Shown here one piece after another: positions 6,847 to 63,780 of a stretch of DNA of 64,000 bases. The stretch is from IMG/VR virus record IMGVR_UViG_3300025133_000019; one strand, 5' to 3'. A model generated the notes under the pieces. The model saw only the letters and a list, made by a program, of their open reading frames with translations, was not told the DNA's origin and did no database searches. Within the stretch, counting starts at the first letter, position 1, and each line of letters starts with the position of its first letter. A program made the position numbers and the translations under genes. This DNA comes from a virus. Its lineage: Duplodnaviria; Heunggongvirae; Uroviricota; Caudoviricetes.

Positions 6847-7840
6847 TATAGTTAACTTTATAAAGTCTCTTCAAGACGGTGTCCCCGACTTGATATACGT
6901 GTTTGGAGAGGATCGGGACCAGAGGTTAGTTGTGACCATGCTACTAAGGTCTTTAGTGACTTCTCAAGATGGAGTTTTTGTCACTGAGTTTGAGGACTCT
7001 AAATTGGGACCCTCTGATCTACAAGAACTGCTATGCTATAACGAACTCTTTGGAGATAGAAAAGCTGTTTATCTAGATAACTTCGCCTCTATGAAAAACT
7101 TCAAGAAAGCTAGTATACAGGAACTTCGTGAATTAAATGGAGGGGGAGTATTAATTTTAGATTCCTGCTCCAAGAATTTGGTTAGAAGCGATTTAGCATA
7201 TTTAGAAGAGGCAGAGGCTCTTATTCTGGAGTGTTCCCCTTTAGATGCCGATAGTTCCGAGTATAAAATTATGGTGGGAGTACTAATAGATCTATTACTA
7301 GGGTTTAGACCTAGAGCTGACTCCATAGACTTTTTAAGCAGTAAGAAATATAAATTTGGAGATCTTTGGCATTTATTGATGGCACTAAGATTGTCAGAGG
7401 ATGATTTATCCAAAGAAACTTTAGTTCCGGAATTACTGGAGGGAAAAGCTAGATCTTCTAAGAGGGGGGATATTGATTTTTTCCTCTTTTCTGTGTTAAC
7501 AAAAAATTTAAGGTCGTGTCTGGGATTTGTTGATACTTTGTTCTTTAAAGAGGACAAAACAACTTATCTACTCTATTATCTAGCCGAGTTTTTTGAGAAG
7601 TTGTATAGTATAAAGGTTAGGAAAAACATAAGCCCGTTTGAATTGAGTTCTCTGTTAAAGATAAAGTTGAATAAAGCTAAAGCAATGAAAGAGGCTTCCA
7701 AGAGGTGGTCTAAGTTTAAAATAGAGGAATCTCTTAGGTTGATGTATAAGGTTGACAAATACTATACTCAATCCTCCAGGTCTAAAGTTGTAGGAAGGAC
7801 TCAGGTAGATCAATTGCTCATGAAGGTGCTTTCTGACTAA
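6827..7840 (+). CDS. holA: DNA polymerase III delta-like clamp-loader subunit
   Basis: N-terminal LIYVFGED; 'ELFGDRKAVYL' (SLF-type clamp-binding motif); C-terminal 'ASKRWSKFKIEESLRLMYKVD'; adjacent to holB. Confidence 0.75.
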   Translation: MAQRQFNIVNFIKSLQDGVPDLIYVFGEDRDQRLVVTMLLRSLVTSQDGVFVTEFEDSKLGPSDLQELLCYNELFGDRKAVYLDNFASMKNFKKASIQELRELNGGGVLILDSCSKNLVRSDLAYLEEAEALILECSPLDADSSEYKIMVGVLIDLLLGFRPRADSIDFLSSKKYKFGDLWHLLMALRLSEDDLSKETLVPELLEGKARSSKRGDIDFFLFSVLTKNLRSCLGFVDTLFFKEDKTTYLLYYLAEFFEKLYSIKVRKNISPFELSSLLKIKLNKAKAMKEASKRWSKFKIEESLRLMYKVDKYYTQSSRSKVVGRTQVDQLLMKVLSD

Positions 7841-7878
7841 TATTTTTTTGATTTTTCTCTTTTTATAGGGGAGAAAAT

Positions 7879-8799
7879 ATGAAAAAAAATTATTGGCTAT
7901 TAAATAGATTGGGTAACACAAAGGTAGAGGCGGGTAAGAAATACAAGCCTAGCCCTAGAGGATCAGCGGTGAGAGCTACTATTAACTTAGAAGGTTCTAC
8001 TTTAACCGAGGTTATAGGGCATCTTAGTGATATTACTAATACCAACCCGGCATCTCAAGAAGAGTTTCTGGATAGTCTTACTTCAAATTTGAGGTATGCT
8101 TCATTCTTAGCTCTTGGGGATAACGTAACTAATCCTGACAAAGATAACTACAGGAAAATAGCTTTAAGACTGTTGAAGTCTGGAGGGTTCTCTTTGAAGA
8201 GAGAGGATAATGTAATTCAAGCTAGCAAGCAAGATGTTAGCTTCAGTCTCTCTTTAGACGAGCTAGATTCTAGCAGACTAGAATATCAAAAATCATTTAC
8301 TTTCAAAAAGCAAGCAGCTATTATACCCAGTGTCAAATTCGTACAAGGTTTGGCTAAGCAGGCTTTTGATACCGTGATGAAGGTGAAGCCCAAAGATATT
8401 AGCAAGGCTATCTCAGGTTTTGTACACTCTTTATGGTTTGATTATGCGGTGGACAAAAATATTTACTTGGCCTCGATGTTATATCACGAACTCAGAGAGA
8501 GTTACTTGCCTAAGCTACAGAAAGATTTTGAGATTAAAGAGTTAAGGTATTTCTCCAGTGATTCGAGAGATCAGAAGCTGTCTAATTTTCTTAATAGATT
8601 GACAGAAGCTATTGACGACGGTAAAAAAGTAAAAAATATAGTTGGTAATACAAAGAAAGTTTATCCTGAAATGTCAACCAGAGACTTGTGCGACAGGATA
8701 ATTCTCATGGGAGAGTTAATGAATCTTGCTGATGATAAGTTAGACAGGATTTGTGAGTATTTGAGAGACGAGACCGAGTTAGAATTTGAATTTGCTTGA
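7879..8799 (+). CDS. Hypothetical protein
   Basis: 306-aa ORF, GGGGAG RBS. Confidence 0.6.
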   Translation: MKKNYWLLNRLGNTKVEAGKKYKPSPRGSAVRATINLEGSTLTEVIGHLSDITNTNPASQEEFLDSLTSNLRYASFLALGDNVTNPDKDNYRKIALRLLKSGGFSLKREDNVIQASKQDVSFSLSLDELDSSRLEYQKSFTFKKQAAIIPSVKFVQGLAKQAFDTVMKVKPKDISKAISGFVHSLWFDYAVDKNIYLASMLYHELRESYLPKLQKDFEIKELRYFSSDSRDQKLSNFLNRLTEAIDDGKKVKNIVGNTKKVYPEMSTRDLCDRIILMGELMNLADDKLDRICEYLRDETELEFEFA

Positions 8800-42354: not shown

Positions 42355-44025
42355 ATGAGTACAAATAATTATGATTTTTTGAATGACCAGAGGGCTAATA
42401 CTCCTCAATCAGAAGCTATTCCTGGTAGAGAGTCAGAGATGACTCGAAACTTGGCAGGCGGATTCGGTTTTAAGGCTGGGGAATGGACTGCTTTGCGCAG
42501 ATGGTTATGCGTAGGTTCTACTAATAACGCATTTTATGCAAGCAGAAAGTCCATGACTACAGATAACTTAAAATTTGCTGTAGCTCTTGTAGAGCAAAAT
42601 CCTCAGGAATTTGCAAACCAAGTAGTTTACGCTTCTAACAAAGGGCTAAGTAACTCCACTCCTCTTTTGGCTTTGGTTTTGCTTAGTAACGGTTCAAGCA
42701 AAGATGCTAAAGATTCCTTCCTAGGTATTTTTAATGAAGTTGTTAGAACTGCGTCCCATTTGTACGAATTTTTGAGTTATGTTCCTAACTTTAGAGGTTT
42801 TGGAACCACTATTCAAAAAGCTGTTCATAATTGGTTTGACTCTCTTGGTGCGTCCAAGCTCTCTTACCAGATGTTGAAGTATGGCTCTAGGTCCGGGTGG
42901 TCTCATCGTGATGTTCTTAGAAAGTTTCACGTTCGACCTGCATCCACAGATCATGACGCTCTTTACGGGTGGTGTGTGAATGGATCGCTGGGAGATCGTG
43001 TTACTAGCGACGAAGATCCTTTAAAGCAAATCTATTGGGTTGAAAGGCTCAAGGAAAATGCTGGAAATGAGGCTGAAGTATTGAGAGCTATTAGAGAAGG
43101 TAATCTTACCCATGAGATGGTTACTGGGAACGTTACTGGGATGACTAACGCTATTAGGCGAGAACTATTAGTTCGAATGCCTTTGACTGCGACTATTAGG
43201 AATCTTGGGGCTATGACCAGTCATGGTGTAATTTCTTTCAATGATACAGGTTTAACAGATATTTTGGAGTCCAGACTGTGTAACCAAGACGCATTATCTA
43301 GAGCTAGGATTCATCCTTTGGTCCTAGCAAGTGCTTACAAGGTTTATGCGGGTGGAGGAACCCTAGGGAAGTCCAAGCTGACTTGGAATCCTGTTGACAG
43401 CGTTCTTAATGTTCTTGAGAACGCAGTTAACATGTCCTTTGATGCCCTGGAGCCAACTGGGTTAAGATATCAGTTTAACGTTGATATTAGCGGATCTATG
43501 ACATGGGACCCTTATGGGACTAGTAATTTGTCAATGAATCCTATGAATATTGCAGGGATTTTAGCTCTTGCTGGAGTTAAAGCTGAGAAGCATTGTTATG
43601 TTGGAGGCTTTAATACTAGTTTTACTAAGTTCCCTATGACGAAAAGGTCTAGTTTTCTAGATTCTATGAATGGATCACGTTCTGTTTGGCCTGCGTGGAT
43701 TGGTGGAGGTACTGATGCCTCTGTTGGTTACAGGGATGCCGAGAAGAACAAACGAGAAGTTGATGTGTTCGTGAGTATCACGGATAACATGAGCTGGGCT
43801 GGTCATAACCATCCTGTACAAGCTCTTGCTAGTTACAGGAATAAGGTTAACAGGAATACTAGAGCAGTATACATTACTGTAGCAGCTCCGTATTCCGACC
43901 AAGTAACTCTCGTAGATCCTAAGGATTCTAGGAGCACAGATCTAGTAGGATTTAGTGCAGATTCTATCAGGTACATGCAAATGTTCGCTACAGGGGAATT
44001 GGACCCTGTTTTTACAGACGGGTAA
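42355..44025 (+). CDS. rsr: Ro60/TROVE RNA-binding protein with vWA domain
   Basis: NLAGGFGF; LRRWLCVGS; KYGSRSGWSHRDVLRKFH; MPLTATIRNLGAM; IHP; DISGSM; GGTD; TDNMSW. Confidence 0.93.
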   Translation: MSTNNYDFLNDQRANTPQSEAIPGRESEMTRNLAGGFGFKAGEWTALRRWLCVGSTNNAFYASRKSMTTDNLKFAVALVEQNPQEFANQVVYASNKGLSNSTPLLALVLLSNGSSKDAKDSFLGIFNEVVRTASHLYEFLSYVPNFRGFGTTIQKAVHNWFDSLGASKLSYQMLKYGSRSGWSHRDVLRKFHVRPASTDHDALYGWCVNGSLGDRVTSDEDPLKQIYWVERLKENAGNEAEVLRAIREGNLTHEMVTGNVTGMTNAIRRELLVRMPLTATIRNLGAMTSHGVISFNDTGLTDILESRLCNQDALSRARIHPLVLASAYKVYAGGGTLGKSKLTWNPVDSVLNVLENAVNMSFDALEPTGLRYQFNVDISGSMTWDPYGTSNLSMNPMNIAGILALAGVKAEKHCYVGGFNTSFTKFPMTKRSSFLDSMNGSRSVWPAWIGGGTDASVGYRDAEKNKREVDVFVSITDNMSWAGHNHPVQALASYRNKVNRNTRAVYITVAAPYSDQVTLVDPKDSRSTDLVGFSADSIRYMQMFATGELDPVFTDG

Positions 44026-45358: not shown

Positions 45359-46323
45359 AGAGCTTATAAGATGGATGTTTGATAGCCATCCTGATATAGT
45401 GAGAGCTTACAAGGAAACCGATCATCATTATAACGGTATTCTTAACCCGTATCACCTGGAAGGGGATTGTTGGGCTCATTTGTGTATGGTTATGATGAAA
45501 GCCCGAGACTTAGGTGTTCCTGATGTTGTTAGGTATGCTGCGTTATTCCATGACCTCGGGAAAATTGATACCAGACGAGTTAACCCGGAAAAAGGGTGGG
45601 TGTCTTTTACTGGTCACGAAGGGGTATCTTTTTGGAAGAGTATTGAGCACCTTCAGTCCTTAGGGATGCAAGGAGATGATCTTATAAGGTGTCTGCAAAT
45701 CATAAGTTTGCATACAGATCTTTACAAAATAGTTGGATCTGAGAAGAGTGATCTTAGTAATGGGGTGATTAATCCCAGATTTTTTTCTAAGTTCAAGTAT
45801 AACAAGGATTTAGTTCGTGATTTGGTTCAACATACTAGGAAGGTTTAGCGGTCAAATCTCTGGAGTACAAGATTTTGGGGAATTAATGGATATCTTTGTT
45901 GAAGACATAGAGGATACTCAGGAATACCAGGAACCCTGGAAGCGTAATACCATAACATTAATGGTAGGGCTTCCTTGTTCTGGGAAGTCTGTTTATACAA
46001 ATAGTAACAAAACCTCGGAAATTGTGATTTCCAGGGATGCTTTAATTGAGAAAGTAGCCGAAGAAGAAAGTATCACGTATAACGAGGCTTTTCATATTAC
46101 CGGAAAGGAGTTAGACCGAGAAGTAAATAATCAAATAAATGAGGCTATTAAGAATAAGCAGGATATAATTATAGATAAGACTCATATGAGCCCTAAGTCA
46201 AGGCGAAGATCTATGGCTAGGATTCCTAGTAAATCAGGGCCTCCAGAGAAATCTGGAGGCCCTTTTTATTATAATCATTTTTTATGTAGTTATAGTGATA
46301 AAAAAATGCTTGCAGAAAAATAA
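45345..46323 (+). pseudogene. HD phosphohydrolase / P-loop polynucleotide kinase fusion, frameshifted and C-terminally truncated
   Basis: HLEGDCWAH, LFHDLGK, GHEGVS; frame switch near 45835; GLPCSGKS, ISRD, IIIDKTH, RRR, then the frame runs into a terminator hairpin. Confidence 0.78.
46236..46267 (+). terminator. Intrinsic terminator
   Basis: AGGGCCTCCAGA-GAAA-TCTGGAGGCCCT-TTTT. Confidence 0.88.
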
Positions 46324-53193: not shown

Positions 53194-53760
53194 TTGACAT
53201 ACCCTGCGTTTATCTTATACAATAAGGGTATGCAGAAATTCCCGGTTCTTTTAAATCGTACATACGAATTCACTTGTATAGAAGAAGAATTAGACAGCAT
53301 AAATTTAAAGCTGTTTAAAAACCCTTTGCGCATAATAAGTCCTGTAGTAGGTAAGGGTCAGAAACCTGTAGTTCTGGCTAAAATACCCTCTATATTTTTT
53401 AAAGATCATTTAGGGTCTCCGGGAATTCTGTGCGTTAATGTGGACGTGATCTCAAAAGATTTCAGATATTACCATGTTAACCAAGACGGGATACTGGTTT
53501 TACTTTACGATTTAATTTACAAAAATGAGAGAGAAAAATCTCTGTTTCTCAGGGGCAAGCAGTGGTATACAGAATCACTGCAAATACGAGACGACTCCGA
53601 GAAACCTAGAAAAAGGCCATATAAACTAAAGCTCATAAAAGATATCTTGGATAGGTGCAGGGTATCAGACCCCTATTCTAAAGGATTTTATTACGGGATT
53701 CTTCATGAGTATCGTGCTATCATAGATTATAACGAAAAAGGTAGTGTCAATGAAGCTTGA
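53194..53760 (+). CDS. Hypothetical protein
   Basis: 188-aa ORF, GAGG RBS, TTG start. Confidence 0.5.
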   Translation: MTYPAFILYNKGMQKFPVLLNRTYEFTCIEEELDSINLKLFKNPLRIISPVVGKGQKPVVLAKIPSIFFKDHLGSPGILCVNVDVISKDFRYYHVNQDGILVLLYDLIYKNEREKSLFLRGKQWYTESLQIRDDSEKPRKRPYKLKLIKDILDRCRVSDPYSKGFYYGILHEYRAIIDYNEKGSVNEA

Positions 53761-59055: not shown

Positions 59056-59590
59056 TATGTATTGGTATGTAGATATAGAACAAACAAGACTTCTCGGATT
59101 TACAGTTCCGGAGTGGGGCCTTTCTAAGGATAGCCGAGCCTTTGAATTGAGATATTTAGAGGATGATATTGTCTCTAGTATCGTAGAACTAGGTGACCTA
59201 ATTCACAGCACCGATTTTTCTTTAGCTAGGTGTTTTGGAAATGCTGGACATGCTGTAGAGAAATTGGTAAAAGTGTTGGGCAAAGAAGAAAAAGGGATTG
59301 CGGATTATTTTAATGAATACGTGGAACAAAACAGCAGGTCTATTTGGACGGTTGAAAACGCTAACTATATTGTGGAGCATCTTTGTTTGGACTCAGCATG
59401 TAATGTGGAAAAAAGTCTGTTAAAAATAGGAGAAAACAAGTCAATAGTGTCTACTCCATTTTGGAGCCCAATGCTTAAGTTTAGGCTACCAGATGTCTAT
59501 TATAAAACGAAAGATAAAGCAATAATGGCTTTAATAGGTAAGATTACCGAGGATTGTCTTATGGTATGGACGGAAGCTATGGAGGGTTAA
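59027..59590 (+). CDS. Paralog-array member
   Basis: MYWYVDIEQTRLLG; YKTKDKAIMAL...VW. Confidence 0.65.
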   Translation: MFILMGQGVNMYWYVDIEQTRLLGFTVPEWGLSKDSRAFELRYLEDDIVSSIVELGDLIHSTDFSLARCFGNAGHAVEKLVKVLGKEEKGIADYFNEYVEQNSRSIWTVENANYIVEHLCLDSACNVEKSLLKIGENKSIVSTPFWSPMLKFRLPDVYYKTKDKAIMALIGKITEDCLMVWTEAMEG

Positions 59591-60134
59591 AACCTAACTC
59601 AAATAAAACCTCCCATAAACGGTCATAACGAGGACTTGTTCTCTTTTTAACATTTCCCCCACTATACGTAGTTGTCTGGGAATGACAGTTGGGGCAAAGA
59701 AGCCGAAGATTTTCTACCTTATTATCCAAAGGATTACCATTTATATGGTCCAAATGTAACACTAAAAAAGCTCCATTCCACCCGACTCTCACGGAACATT
59801 CTTCCCCATAACACCTATATTCCAAAAGTTCCCTCTCCAATAATTGAACTTTTAAGGTTAAAGAGCTAACTTTTCTCCCTTCCACAAAGATATTATTACT
59901 GTTTTTAGACCTGCTGATGCCTAACTTCTTCAGCCCCGAAGCGCTCTTTATATGAGAATAATCAATCTGGTCATGATCTAGACGAGCCTTTAAAGTTTTT
60001 ATACTACTACCATGCCCACTCAAGTAACCAAAGTAATACAAAATGTTAGTATATGTATAAGAATTCTTTACAACCCTTTCTAAATCTTTTTGTGGTATTT
60101 TCCACAAAGGACTTTTTCTTCTGCTTGAGTGCAT
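59577..60134 (-). CDS. Free-standing HNH homing endonuclease
   Basis: LHLDHINGNPLDNKVENLRLLCPNCHSQT; N-terminal helical DNA-binding module. Confidence 0.9.
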   Translation of the reverse strand: MHSSRRKSPLWKIPQKDLERVVKNSYTYTNILYYFGYLSGHGSSIKTLKARLDHDQIDYSHIKSASGLKKLGISRSKNSNNIFVEGRKVSSLTLKVQLLERELLEYRCYGEECSVRVGWNGAFLVLHLDHINGNPLDNKVENLRLLCPNCHSQTTTYSGGNVKKRTSPRYDRLWEVLFELGFNPP

Positions 60135-60222
60135 TACTTCTTACCCTAATCCATTAAACATAAACAGTAACTGAAAGTATAACATTAACTATGTAAAAAG
60201 TACAAAGAACTATTAGTAATAG

Positions 60223-60311
60223 GGCGAAGGACGGGAATCGAACCCGCAACAGGAATATATCCTACAGGGACCACAACCCTGCGACTTTAGCCAATTTCGT
60301 CTACCTACGCC
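60223..60311 (-). tRNA. tRNA-His(GUG) with G-1:C73 and a long variable arm
   Basis: G-1, GCGTAGG/CCTTCGC acceptor, C73; CAGGG-TTGTGGT-CCCTG; variable hairpin AGGA-TATAT-TCCT; GGTTCGATTCC. Confidence 0.8.
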
Positions 60312-60318
60312 ATGTATA

Positions 60319-60389
60319 TCGGAATGGGAGGTAACGATCCCCCGCTATAAGGCCCCCGGCCTTATATGCTTCCATTACACTACATTCCG
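60319..60389 (-). tRNA. tRNA-Pro(GGG), atypical
   Basis: CGGAATG/CATTCCG, A73; TAAGG-CCGGGGG-CCTTA; C33; T-loop ATCGTTA. Confidence 0.65.
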
Positions 60390-60414
60390 TCTTGCAACTA
60401 AACTATTTATTTTA

Positions 60415-60485
60415 CAGGGGTGCCCAGAATCGAACTGAGGACCGAATGTTTGGAAAATTCGGGGATACCACTACCTCACACCCCT
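60415..60485 (-). tRNA. tRNA-Trp(CCA)
   Basis: AGGGGTG/CACCCCT, G73; loop TTCCAAA; CTCAG-TTCGATT-CTGGG; weak D stem. Confidence 0.75.
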
Positions 60486-60529
60486 ATAAATATAAATTAC
60501 TCTTAATAGCTCGTAATTACTACGAATAA

Positions 60530-60604
60530 TCGGAGTGGAGGGATTCGAACCCCCGAAATACCCCAGCCCAAACTGGGTGGCCGACCTGACTAGCCCACAC
60601 TCCG
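60530..60604 (-). tRNA. tRNA-Pro(UGG); anticodon loop only 6 nt as written
   Basis: CGGAGTG/CACTCCG, A73; CCCAG-TTTGGG-CTGGG; GGTTCGAATCC. Confidence 0.75.
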
Positions 60605-60611
60605 TTAAATA

Positions 60612-60682
60612 AGCGGTCCCCAAGATTCGAACCTGGATCTCCTGCCTACAATGGCAGGGCTTTTCCGTTAAGCTAAAACCGC
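60612..60682 (-). tRNA. tRNA-Thr(UGU)-like; anticodon loop only 6 nt as written
   Basis: GCGGTTT/GGACCGC; CTGCC-ATTGTA-GGCAG; CCAGG-TTCGAAT-CTTGG. Confidence 0.7.
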
Positions 60683-60730
60683 TATGATTATTTTTACTTT
60701 TCTTATTCTGTTGTCAAAAATCTTGGTAAC

Positions 60731-60774
60731 AAAAATCCCCTAACAAGTCTTGTAACCTGTTAGGGGATTTTTTT
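60731..60774 (-). terminator. Attenuator terminator upstream of the tRNA array
   Basis: Minus strand AAAAATCCCCTAACA-GGTTACAAGACT-TGTTAGGGGATTTTT. Confidence 0.85.
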
Positions 60775-60796
60775 AATGCTACAGCAATGCTTACAA

Positions 60797-60883
60797 TCAA
60801 CCCATAAACAGGTACAACCTTCTTGGTCCGGCGGTGGGCCAAGTGGTCGGCACTCGATGTCTATGTGTTGTTGTAATTTTCAT
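60797..60883 (-). CDS. 28-aa leader peptide MKITTTHRHRVPTTWPTAGPRRLYLFMG (putative attenuator peptide)
   Basis: ATG 6 nt after the -10; rich in Thr/His/Pro/Trp codons; 3' end is complementary to the terminator 5' arm. Confidence 0.72.
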   Translation of the reverse strand: MKITTTHRHRVPTTWPTAGPRRLYLFMG

Positions 60884-60889
60884 ATCTTA

Positions 60890-60918
60890 ATCTTATACTA
60901 ATAAACTATTAGTGTCAA
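60890..60918 (-). promoter_or_regulatory. Sigma70 promoter of the leader/tRNA operon with a palindromic spacer
   Basis: TTGACA (60918)-17-TAAGAT (60895); inverted repeat ACTAATA-GTT-TATTAGT. Confidence 0.75.
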
Positions 60919-61517
60919 GTGTTTTTAAAATGTTCTAAGTAGTCTTCACCCTCGTACCCTAACTCCTTCTCAATCTTATCCTTAAGCTTTCTAAATCTTT
61001 TCGGTTGCTTTTTAATAAGATCACTATACATATCAGATAAGCCATGGGACATCATTTCTCTAGCATGACCATGACTTAGAGGAGCATCATGACTCTTTTC
61101 ATAATCTGTACTTTTTATCACGAAATCAACTACCGAATCTATATAAGCCTTGTCCCAATTGTTTTGATGTTTAGAAACAAAAGCCTTAAACTCAGGTAAT
61201 CCAGATATAAGCTTAAACCACTCAAATGGAGGAGGGTTTTCACTGGGAAACCCGAATTTCAAAGAAATACTGGGAAGAGACCCGAAAAATCCATCAGGAT
61301 TTTTTTCTATATAATCTAAAACTTCGGGATGTCTGATAAAATACTTTTTATCTTCAAGCGTAGCATATCCTGAATACAAGAAGGGAGCTGGATTCAAATT
61401 ACTAGACAATGTACTCTCTAAATTCTTCTTAAATTCCTCAGAAGGACTAGAAGCCCTCTTAATAAGTTTATCCAACGTATTATCTATTGTTTTATGATCT
61501 TGTGCGGTAAATTTCAT
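60915..61517 (-). CDS. Hypothetical protein
   Basis: 200-aa ORF, AGGTAGG RBS. Confidence 0.6.
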   Translation of the reverse strand: MKFTAQDHKTIDNTLDKLIKRASSPSEEFKKNLESTLSSNLNPAPFLYSGYATLEDKKYFIRHPEVLDYIEKNPDGFFGSLPSISLKFGFPSENPPPFEWFKLISGLPEFKAFVSKHQNNWDKAYIDSVVDFVIKSTDYEKSHDAPLSHGHAREMMSHGLSDMYSDLIKKQPKRFRKLKDKIEKELGYEGEDYLEHFKNT

Positions 61518-62823: not shown

Positions 62824-62894
62824 GGGCCATTGGTGTAATGGATGCACAAAAGTCTTCTAAACTTTTAGTCGAGGTTCGAATCCTTGATGGCCTA
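62824..62894 (+). tRNA. tRNA-Arg(UCU)
   Basis: GGGCCAT/ATGGCCT, A73; AAAGT-CTTCTAA-ACTTT; CGAGG-TTCGAAT-CCTTG. Confidence 0.9.
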
Positions 62895-62902
62895 TTTTTA
62901 AT

Positions 62903-62932
62903 TTGACAAACCAACTGGCGGTTTGCTATATT
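62903..62932 (+). promoter_or_regulatory. Sigma70-type promoter
   Basis: TTGACA-18-TATATT with extended TG; GAGG RBS before ATG 62950. Confidence 0.6.
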
Positions 62933-63780
62933 ACTTAAAAAGAGGCGTTATGTTCGATTGGATCAGAAGAAAGTTAACACCGCAAGACCACATTAATCCC
63001 CCTGATAAAGAGACTTTAAAACCTATGGTTAAGACCTCTGTTAAACCTCAGGTCAAAAAGAAGGTAACAAGAGTAGTTCTCAAGTCTCCTTTACCAAAAG
63101 ATTTGGTAGTAAGGAAAGCTCCCATGATTTCTCCTATTAAAGTTGTTACCGAAGTCTCGGATATCGGGGATAAAATTTGGACAGTAGGTAGAGGTAAATT
63201 GTGGACTATGGTCAAGTCTTCGGGGAGTTATGGGGATGTACTAGATATTATAGGGGCAGACCGCACTCCCAAAACTTTAAAAATTCTAATGGAGAGACTG
63301 ACTTTTGACGGTATTTATCATGCCAGACTTAGAAGTTCCTTAGATCTTACAGACAGATCTGAGGTAAACGCTGAGAACATAATAATGGGAGTGCCCAAGA
63401 AAAAGTTAGAGTCTTTGGTTGAGCAGAGCAGCAGTTTTACTAAGCTGCTTAATTCTCTGGGAATTGAGAAACCCGGTGGACGAGCACACGATATTTTGAA
63501 GCAGAGACTGAAAAGAGACAGCATTGATCCTAGTAATTTGAATTCTTTGAACAAAAAAGCTAAAGAAACAGAGTATTTTGTTCGAAAGCTTGAAATTAAA
63601 AACCCTGCCGTGGTTAAAAAAGCTGAATATTCTACTGCCATGAACAAAGTTTCGGGTAAAGAGTTGTCTGAACTAGTTTTAGTGATGAATAATTCTTGTA
63701 TAGCCAGGAGATTCGGTGTTCATTCAAGTACTGTGGGCAGGCAACTAAGGAAACGGGGCATAACCAGATCTCATGGTTAA
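62923..63780 (+). CDS. DNA-binding protein with two HNH-associated modules and a C-terminal HTH, no nuclease
   Basis: KSSGSYGDVLDIIG... and EQSSSFTKLLNSLG...LKQRLKRDSID resemble the N-terminus of the 59577 HNH; IARRFGVHSSTVGRQL; likely start 62950. Confidence 0.6.
   Translation: MLYYLKRGVMFDWIRRKLTPQDHINPPDKETLKPMVKTSVKPQVKKKVTRVVLKSPLPKDLVVRKAPMISPIKVVTEVSDIGDKIWTVGRGKLWTMVKSSGSYGDVLDIIGADRTPKTLKILMERLTFDGIYHARLRSSLDLTDRSEVNAENIIMGVPKKKLESLVEQSSSFTKLLNSLGIEKPGGRAHDILKQRLKRDSIDPSNLNSLNKKAKETEYFVRKLEIKNPAVVKKAEYSTAMNKVSGKELSELVLVMNNSCIARRFGVHSSTVGRQLRKRGITRSHG

Follow-up and report, generated by a model that had tools for sequence, protein, structure and literature searches.

A candidate leader-peptide attenuator ahead of a tRNA operon, and a serine-specific counterpart, in an uncultured marine huge phage

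The trpL, hisL, thrL, pheL and ilvGMEDA leaders share a short promoter-proximal open reading frame (ORF) whose regulatory codons lie in the first of several RNA segments. In these classical enterobacterial attenuators a ribosome terminating at the stop codon covers segment 2, the 1:2, 2:3 and 3:4 pairings are mutually exclusive, and an intrinsic terminator precedes the genes under control; thrL and ilvL each respond to more than one amino acid. Leaderless precedents have been described in the trpL transcript (rnTrpL) of S. meliloti (PMC6614838) and in the polycysteine short ORFs of mycobacteria (bioRxiv 10.1101/834739), where the sensing ORF occupies the 5' end of the RNA, has no ribosome-binding site and controls the genes downstream. 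The present analysis concerns a stretch of 64,000 nucleotides (nt) from a phage of the Caudoviricetes (IMG/VR record IMGVR_UViG_3300025133_000019), referred to as the window, and within it a minus-strand element that precedes five transfer RNA (tRNA) genes. We hold, with somewhat more confidence than doubt, that this element is a ribosome-mediated, leader-peptide transcription attenuator of the trp/his type, built on a leaderless ORF and gating the phage tRNA operon. The phage would then probably make its Thr-Pro-Trp-Pro-His tRNAs only when ribosomes read those codons slowly.

The phage element shares the arrangements of the classical attenuators, including the proposed sensing of several amino acids at once. 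Every structural attribute of the family that could be tested is present in the modelled RNA, the element being a variant in what is controlled. Unlike the classical systems, its targets are five tRNAs, followed by an HNH endonuclease, and not biosynthetic enzymes or synthetases; because the regulated genes are tRNAs, the product would feed back directly on decoding speed. It differs further in that the ORF stands at the 5' end of the transcript without a Shine-Dalgarno sequence, and in that the 1:2 hairpin (34 pairs) covers almost the whole ORF. In contrast to the leaderless attenuators of S. meliloti and mycobacteria, which are cellular and serve amino-acid biosynthesis, it is phage-borne, precedes tRNA genes and has no sequence similarity to them. 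Among the leader families of Rfam (His_leader RF00514, Phe_leader RF01859, trpB motif RF04312 and others) the best matches reached 24-28 bits against thresholds of 49-59 (E ~0.25).

The order of the elements on the minus strand is compact. A promoter with 10/12 consensus matches (P1, TTGACA-17-TAAGAT, 60890..60918, with TTGACA from 60918 and TAAGAT ending at 60890) has its -35 box overlapped by the stop codon of an upstream 200-amino-acid ORF (60915-61517, minus strand, no known family). The leader ATG at 60883, 6 nt downstream of the -10 box, opens a putatively leaderless ORF of 28 sense codons plus TGA (MKITTTHRHRVPTTWPTAGPRRLYLFMG; 60797..60883, TGA at 60799-60797), in which codons 4-17 are the putative sensing codons. 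In the RNAfold prediction, segments 1 and 2 form a long imperfect hairpin (60791..60876). Segment 2 (60795..60817), which is invariant in all three homologues, can pair with segment 1 or, according to duplex prediction, with segment 3, made up of the 5' arm and loop of the terminator (60750..60767). Segments 3:4 with their U-run constitute the intrinsic terminator (60731..60768, -22.7 kcal/mol), which separates the leader ORF from the tRNAs as in an attenuator. There follow, on the same strand, genes for a tRNA with a UGU (Thr-like) anticodon (60611..60683), tRNA-Pro(UGG) (60530..60604), tRNA-Trp(CCA) (60414..60486), tRNA-Pro(GGG) (60319..60389) and tRNA-His(GUG) (60222..60310), the last four called by both ARAGORN and Infernal. 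A sequence-only reading that preceded this work had described the promoter, ATG, 28-codon ORF, terminator and five tRNAs, and each of them was found on the minus strand where it had been placed. Promoters of the host type (TTGACA-N16-18-TAnnnT) occur 8 times in the window versus 2.9 expected.

The codon content of the leader corresponds to the tRNAs downstream. Thr, Pro, Trp and His make up 12 of its 28 codons, all 12 within codons 4-20, and every one of the five tRNAs is matched by a cognate codon, exactly as the sequence-only reading had counted. The phage-wide share of these four amino acids is 11.6% of codons (binomial p 2e-5 for the leader versus the phage's own codon usage), and the leader's share is the highest among the window's 221 ORFs that begin with ATG and have 20-45 codons, with the next at 0.32. 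Within codons 4-17, where a stalled ribosome would free segment 2, the fraction rises to 11/14. Such an enrichment in regulatory codons is a mark of trp/his/thr-type attenuators. The AGA and AGG codons of the leader had likewise been linked to a separate tRNA-Arg(UCU). This tRNA is present on the plus strand (62824-62894); the codons themselves (21-22) cannot be sensors, because a ribosome stalled there masks segment 2.

Furthermore, the predicted folding provides the alternative structures that such a device needs. Nucleotides 8-93 of the transcript fold into one long imperfect hairpin (-32.6 kcal/mol, z-score -4.83), and 0/200 shuffles were as good. Its 5' strand comprises ACA ACA ACA CAT AGA CAT and the subsequent codons, and its 3' strand the last six codons, the TGA and six further bases. 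On the model, this hairpin corresponds to the 1:2 structure of trp-type attenuators, segment 1 containing the regulatory codons, and the position of the TGA inside the 3' strand places a terminating ribosome to cover segment 2. The switch was modelled by constrained folding, with a 29-nt ribosome footprint on the nascent RNA and the RNA cut just before the 3' arm of the terminator. When the footprint had its A site on codons 5-16, segment 2 was predicted to pair with the 5' arm and loop of the terminator in all three homologues (TTGTACCTGTT with AACAGGTTACAA, plus GGG with CCC). When the A site was moved to codon 20 or to the stop codon, 2:3 pairing was not predicted and the 5' arm was left free for the terminator. 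Folding with and without ribosome masking had been proposed as a check in the sequence-only reading, which had also noted the complementarity between the leader 3' end and the terminator; this complementarity is real and longer than it described. The predicted 2:3 antiterminator duplex has an energy of -16.3 kcal/mol, and 2% of dinucleotide-shuffled leaders were as good.

Two other distinct versions of the locus, L001/L002 and L014/L034, were recovered by metagenome scan and protein look-up; among the 17 matches of the scan the true homologues were only L014 and L004, the latter identical to L002. The neighbouring proteins of the two relatives are ~30-75% identical to those of the window. From promoter to terminator L014 is ~80% identical to the window, and in the hairpin ~90%, despite flanking proteins that are only ~30-50% identical; the comparison therefore indicates that the promoter-to-terminator element is under strong selection. 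Its near-invariance would be the expected product of overlapping constraints from the codons and from the 1:2 and 2:3 pairings. The succession of TTGACA-17-TAAGAT or TAAAAT, exactly 6 nt and ATG is kept in all three versions. The reading frame, whose conservation in homologous leaders the sequence-only reading had made a test of its proposal, survives two independent 3-nt indels, one of which adds a His codon, and the seven leader substitutions consist of four synonymous ones along with I/V, R/G and R/K.

The structure is preserved as well. All 34 hairpin pairs are kept in the three homologues, with one compensatory change (C-G to U-A) and two one-sided changes. The terminators of the relatives are homologous and carry matched 2-nt indels in both arms (-20.7 to -25.0 kcal/mol). 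Their pairs were judged from each sequence's own fold, as the MAFFT alignment misplaces the terminator indels and makes its terminator pair counts artefacts. The terminator loops remain complementary to segment 2 (TACAA or TGCAA versus TTGTA), the 2:3 duplexes of the relatives reach -16.7 and -16.3 kcal/mol (p 0.05 and 0.02), and for both relatives the ribosome position is predicted to switch the structure as in the window.

A second module of the same design was found in the same phage, ~27.2 kb beyond the end of the window. It was reached along a JGI contig (Ga0098052_1000075) that differs from the window at 1 position in 11,051 nt, and together with its tRNAs it occupies L030:7803-8267 (leader unit 7803-7950). 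A TTGACA-17-TACAAT promoter is followed after 9 nt by an ATG and a near-leaderless ORF of 14 codons that ends in six Ser codons (MKKVIFRNSSSSSS; AGT TCA TCC TCC TCG TCC). The predicted 1:2 hairpin pairs CCTCCTCG with CGAGGGG, and the 2:3 pairing (GAGGGG/CCCCTC) is predicted only with the ribosome on Ser codons 9-12. A strong 14-bp terminator follows and then, with no other promoter, tRNA-Ser(UGA) and tRNA-Ser(GCU). The two modules share the consensus promoter, the near-leaderless ORF rich in codons for the amino acids that the following tRNAs serve, the 1:2/2:3/3:4 segments and the tRNAs themselves, and they differ in sequence and specificity: the Ser leader has no Thr, Pro, Trp or His codons, and the first leader has no Ser codons. 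That a single phage carries this design twice, with different specificities, is the strongest argument that the design is functional.

In the mechanism that we propose, host RNA polymerase would start from P1, at the A of the ATG or beside it, and the leader ORF would be read as a leaderless mRNA. If no ribosome loads, or if a ribosome runs fast to the TGA, segment 2 would be held in the 1:2 hairpin or covered by the terminating ribosome; with segment 2 unavailable, the 3:4 terminator would form and transcription would stop before the tRNAs. A ribosome lingering on codons 4-17 (TTTHRHRVPTTWPT) would melt segment 1, so that segment 2 could pair with the 5' arm and loop of the terminator. Once the 2:3 pairing had formed, polymerase would read into the genes for tRNA Thr(UGU), Pro(UGG), Trp(CCA), Pro(GGG) and His(GUG), and a larger supply of these tRNAs would speed up leader translation and restore termination, amounting to negative feedback on tRNA supply. 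The attenuator geometry proposed in the sequence-only reading has gained a conserved 1:2 hairpin, a stop codon in segment 2, a 2:3 pairing predicted in 3/3 homologues and a second module. Regulated read-through, the other part of that proposal, we infer, as we do the translation of the leader ORF, its coupling to polymerase and the shortage that is sensed.

Since no Shine-Dalgarno sequence is present, translation of the leader would need a leaderless 5' AUG. Shine-Dalgarno sequences are present in about half of the phage's long ORFs and in neither the first nor the Ser leader, and the two leader ATGs are no more than ~3 nt from where transcription is expected to begin. Leaderless starts look usable in this phage, given a 176-amino-acid ORF (window 53194-53760, plus strand, no PHROG family) whose ATG at 53230 lies 6 nt after a TTGACA-18-TACAAT promoter and which, from this spacing, is probably carried on a leaderless mRNA.

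Several findings weigh against the attenuator explanation. The predicted antiterminator exceeds chance only modestly (p 0.02-0.05 across the three homologues), and the codon enrichment weakens to a p-value of only 0.017 once dinucleotide shuffles that retain the CA-rich composition of the ORF serve as the reference. Along with the missing Shine-Dalgarno sequence at the leader ORF, the predicted 5' AUG adjoins a very stable hairpin that starts at nt 8. Only three distinct homologues are at hand and nearly all of their positions are invariant; the in-frame indels have p ~0.1 and the third-position bias is not significant. Because there are only three near-invariant versions, coding constraint and RNA-structure constraint are statistically inseparable. 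The leader is almost unchanged though the downstream tRNA-like genes of the relatives differ and are partly unreadable, and L014 has no clear Thr tRNA and carries its Trp tRNA in another transcription unit. It could not be demonstrated that leader codons co-vary with tRNA content, as ARAGORN misses most tRNA-like genes in the relatives; at relaxed thresholds several of these have 6- or 8-nt anticodon loops and no assignable anticodon. In two of the window's five arrayed tRNAs the anticodon loop is abnormal, with 6 nt, which makes it uncertain whether they work in decoding. Finally, a TTGACA (60717)-16-AAAAAT site in the window could still fire independently.

This last site bears on the alternative that survives best, which we nevertheless consider unlikely. 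The element might be an independent short transcription unit, producing a structured small RNA of ~150 nt that possibly encodes a 28-amino-acid peptide and ends at an efficient terminator, with the tRNAs transcribed from the TTGACA at 60717 or by leaky read-through and with the codon match as a by-product of a CA-rich 5' arm of the hairpin. The architecture fits a gene of that kind, the promoter being followed by a hairpin of high stability, a second, small one and the terminator (z-score -7.0 overall), and attenuator RNAs can also act in trans (PMC6614838). The near-total sequence invariance exceeds the needs of a peptide, and the weak codon enrichment at kept composition, as given above, is in line with a by-product. 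The promoter-like site downstream of the terminator (TTGACA-16-AAAAAT with a conserved A-rich stretch, 60690..60717, minus strand) lies between the terminator and the first tRNA and is doubtful as a promoter: in the relatives the corresponding -10 position reads TAAAAG and touches the 5' end of the first tRNA, leaving no usable -10 box in either, L014 has TTGAAA, and a promoter scan calls no promoter in L014 between terminator and tRNAs. From this absence of a conserved -10 box it follows that the tRNAs most likely depend on P1 and read-through. A small RNA gene is also at odds with a terminator loop that remains complementary to segment 2, with indels that are both in frame and with an ATG fixed at the transcription start. 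It leaves unexplained the six Ser codons of the second module, placed before two tRNA-Ser genes with no second promoter. The A-rich stretch itself, of ~30 nt (AGAATAAGAAAAGTAAAAG), is conserved in 3/3 homologues and unconvincing as a promoter; it could be a processing site.

It is still less probable that a cis-acting RNA controls the terminator without translation, through a protein or an uncharged tRNA binding the hairpin (T-box or TRAP-like logic) or as a put-like RNA that lets polymerase resist terminators. The hairpin shows extreme conservation, has fixed internal loops and stands immediately after the promoter and before the terminator, in a phage rich in RNA-handling genes (Ro60, IF3, RNA ligase). 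All of this would suit such a switch, but no Rfam family reaches its threshold on the element and neither a T-box-like specifier nor an NCCA-binding bulge is present. The open frame, the in-frame indels, the codon content and the Ser run of the second module would also have no explanation. A chance ORF in an ordinary intergenic region, whose terminator ends the upstream 200-amino-acid gene and whose tRNAs have their own promoter, is very improbable, since the element exceeds the flanking genes by far in conservation, has its own consensus promoter and a hairpin with a z-score of -4.8, and recurs in design within one genome, even if the terminator does follow the 60915-61517 ORF and an open frame of 28 codons is not rare at this composition (roughly 0.3, an estimate).

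The tRNAs behind the proposed attenuator have unusual bodies. The Thr(UGU)-like tRNA, scored by Infernal at 40.9 bits, could not be named by ARAGORN ('???'); its anticodon loop of 6 nt, AUUGUA, is closed by a sixth stem pair, and a C-G to U-A change in the relative L002 suggests that this extra pair is real. The best pairing of tRNA-Pro(UGG) likewise gives a 6-nt loop, UUUGGG, and Infernal deletes one loop position in both tRNAs. In tRNA-Pro(GGG) a C replaces U at position 33 and the anticodon arm is able to form an 8-bp hairpin, and tRNA-His(GUG) has, besides G-1, a long, class II-like variable arm. Downstream of the leader in the relatives (L014:5966-6570, L002:1374-1648) stand tRNA-like genes in tandem, which share nearly the same GAAG...CTTC acceptor stem; their anticodon loops comprise 6, 7 or 8 nt, some of their T-loops are abnormal, and Infernal scores them at 33-43 bits. 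Directly after the tRNA array of the window lies the HNH homing-endonuclease gene (59577-60134, minus strand), and an ORF beside tRNA-Arg(UCU) (62923-63780, plus strand) has weak similarity to the same HNH family.

The phage also encodes a Ro60/TROVE-vWA protein (window 42355-44025, plus strand), an IF3 homologue (L027:10706-11236) and an RNA ligase (L028:19837-20460). IF3 disfavours leaderless starts, hence a phage IF3 is notable beside leaderless leader ORFs. The leader was considered as a tRNA remnant or as a Y RNA for the phage Ro60 and rejected on both counts, with no Rfam support and no Y RNA found by Rfam in the window. An Rfam match to the Bradyrhizobiaceae small RNA BjrC68 (46205-46271, plus strand, 40.6 versus a threshold of 39 bits) falls within a coding region and is probably spurious. 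Both modules might also act as inducible counter-defence circuits, which would sense when host tRNAs for Thr, Pro, Trp and His (and Ser) are lost, for instance through cleavage by host anticodon nucleases. They would then induce phage copies made resistant by their unusual bodies (6-nt anticodon loops, C33, class II tRNA-His), alongside a Ro60/ligase/kinase RNA-repair island. We give this extension little credence, and its link to anticodon nucleases is speculation.

The sequencing runs that contain DNA of this uncultured marine huge phage are marine metagenomes, with no RNA run listed among them, and a 374 kb contig carries the window's own proteins. Similar DNA was not found in the GenBank phage collection, and a search of IMG/VR gave no relative of the upstream 200-amino-acid protein and no match to any of five leader patterns. 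Protein searches around the L014 locus returned only near-identical contigs (L034) or contigs ending short of the leader, and contigs from four other marine runs gave only identical fragments of the same phage, with no new variants. Four genome-contig matches to the leader lay inside unrelated genes and were discarded as chance.

Phage tRNA genes are usually discussed as constitutive helpers of codon usage or as decoys against tRNA-cutting defences, and no description of leader-peptide attenuation of tRNA genes was found in the literature searched. If the attenuator explanation is true, phages would gauge decoding capacity for individual codons and supplement it when needed, a direct feedback on tRNA supply, and the element would represent a compact and portable multi-codon sensor of tRNA availability. 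The two differently specified modules in one genome make this idea directly testable.

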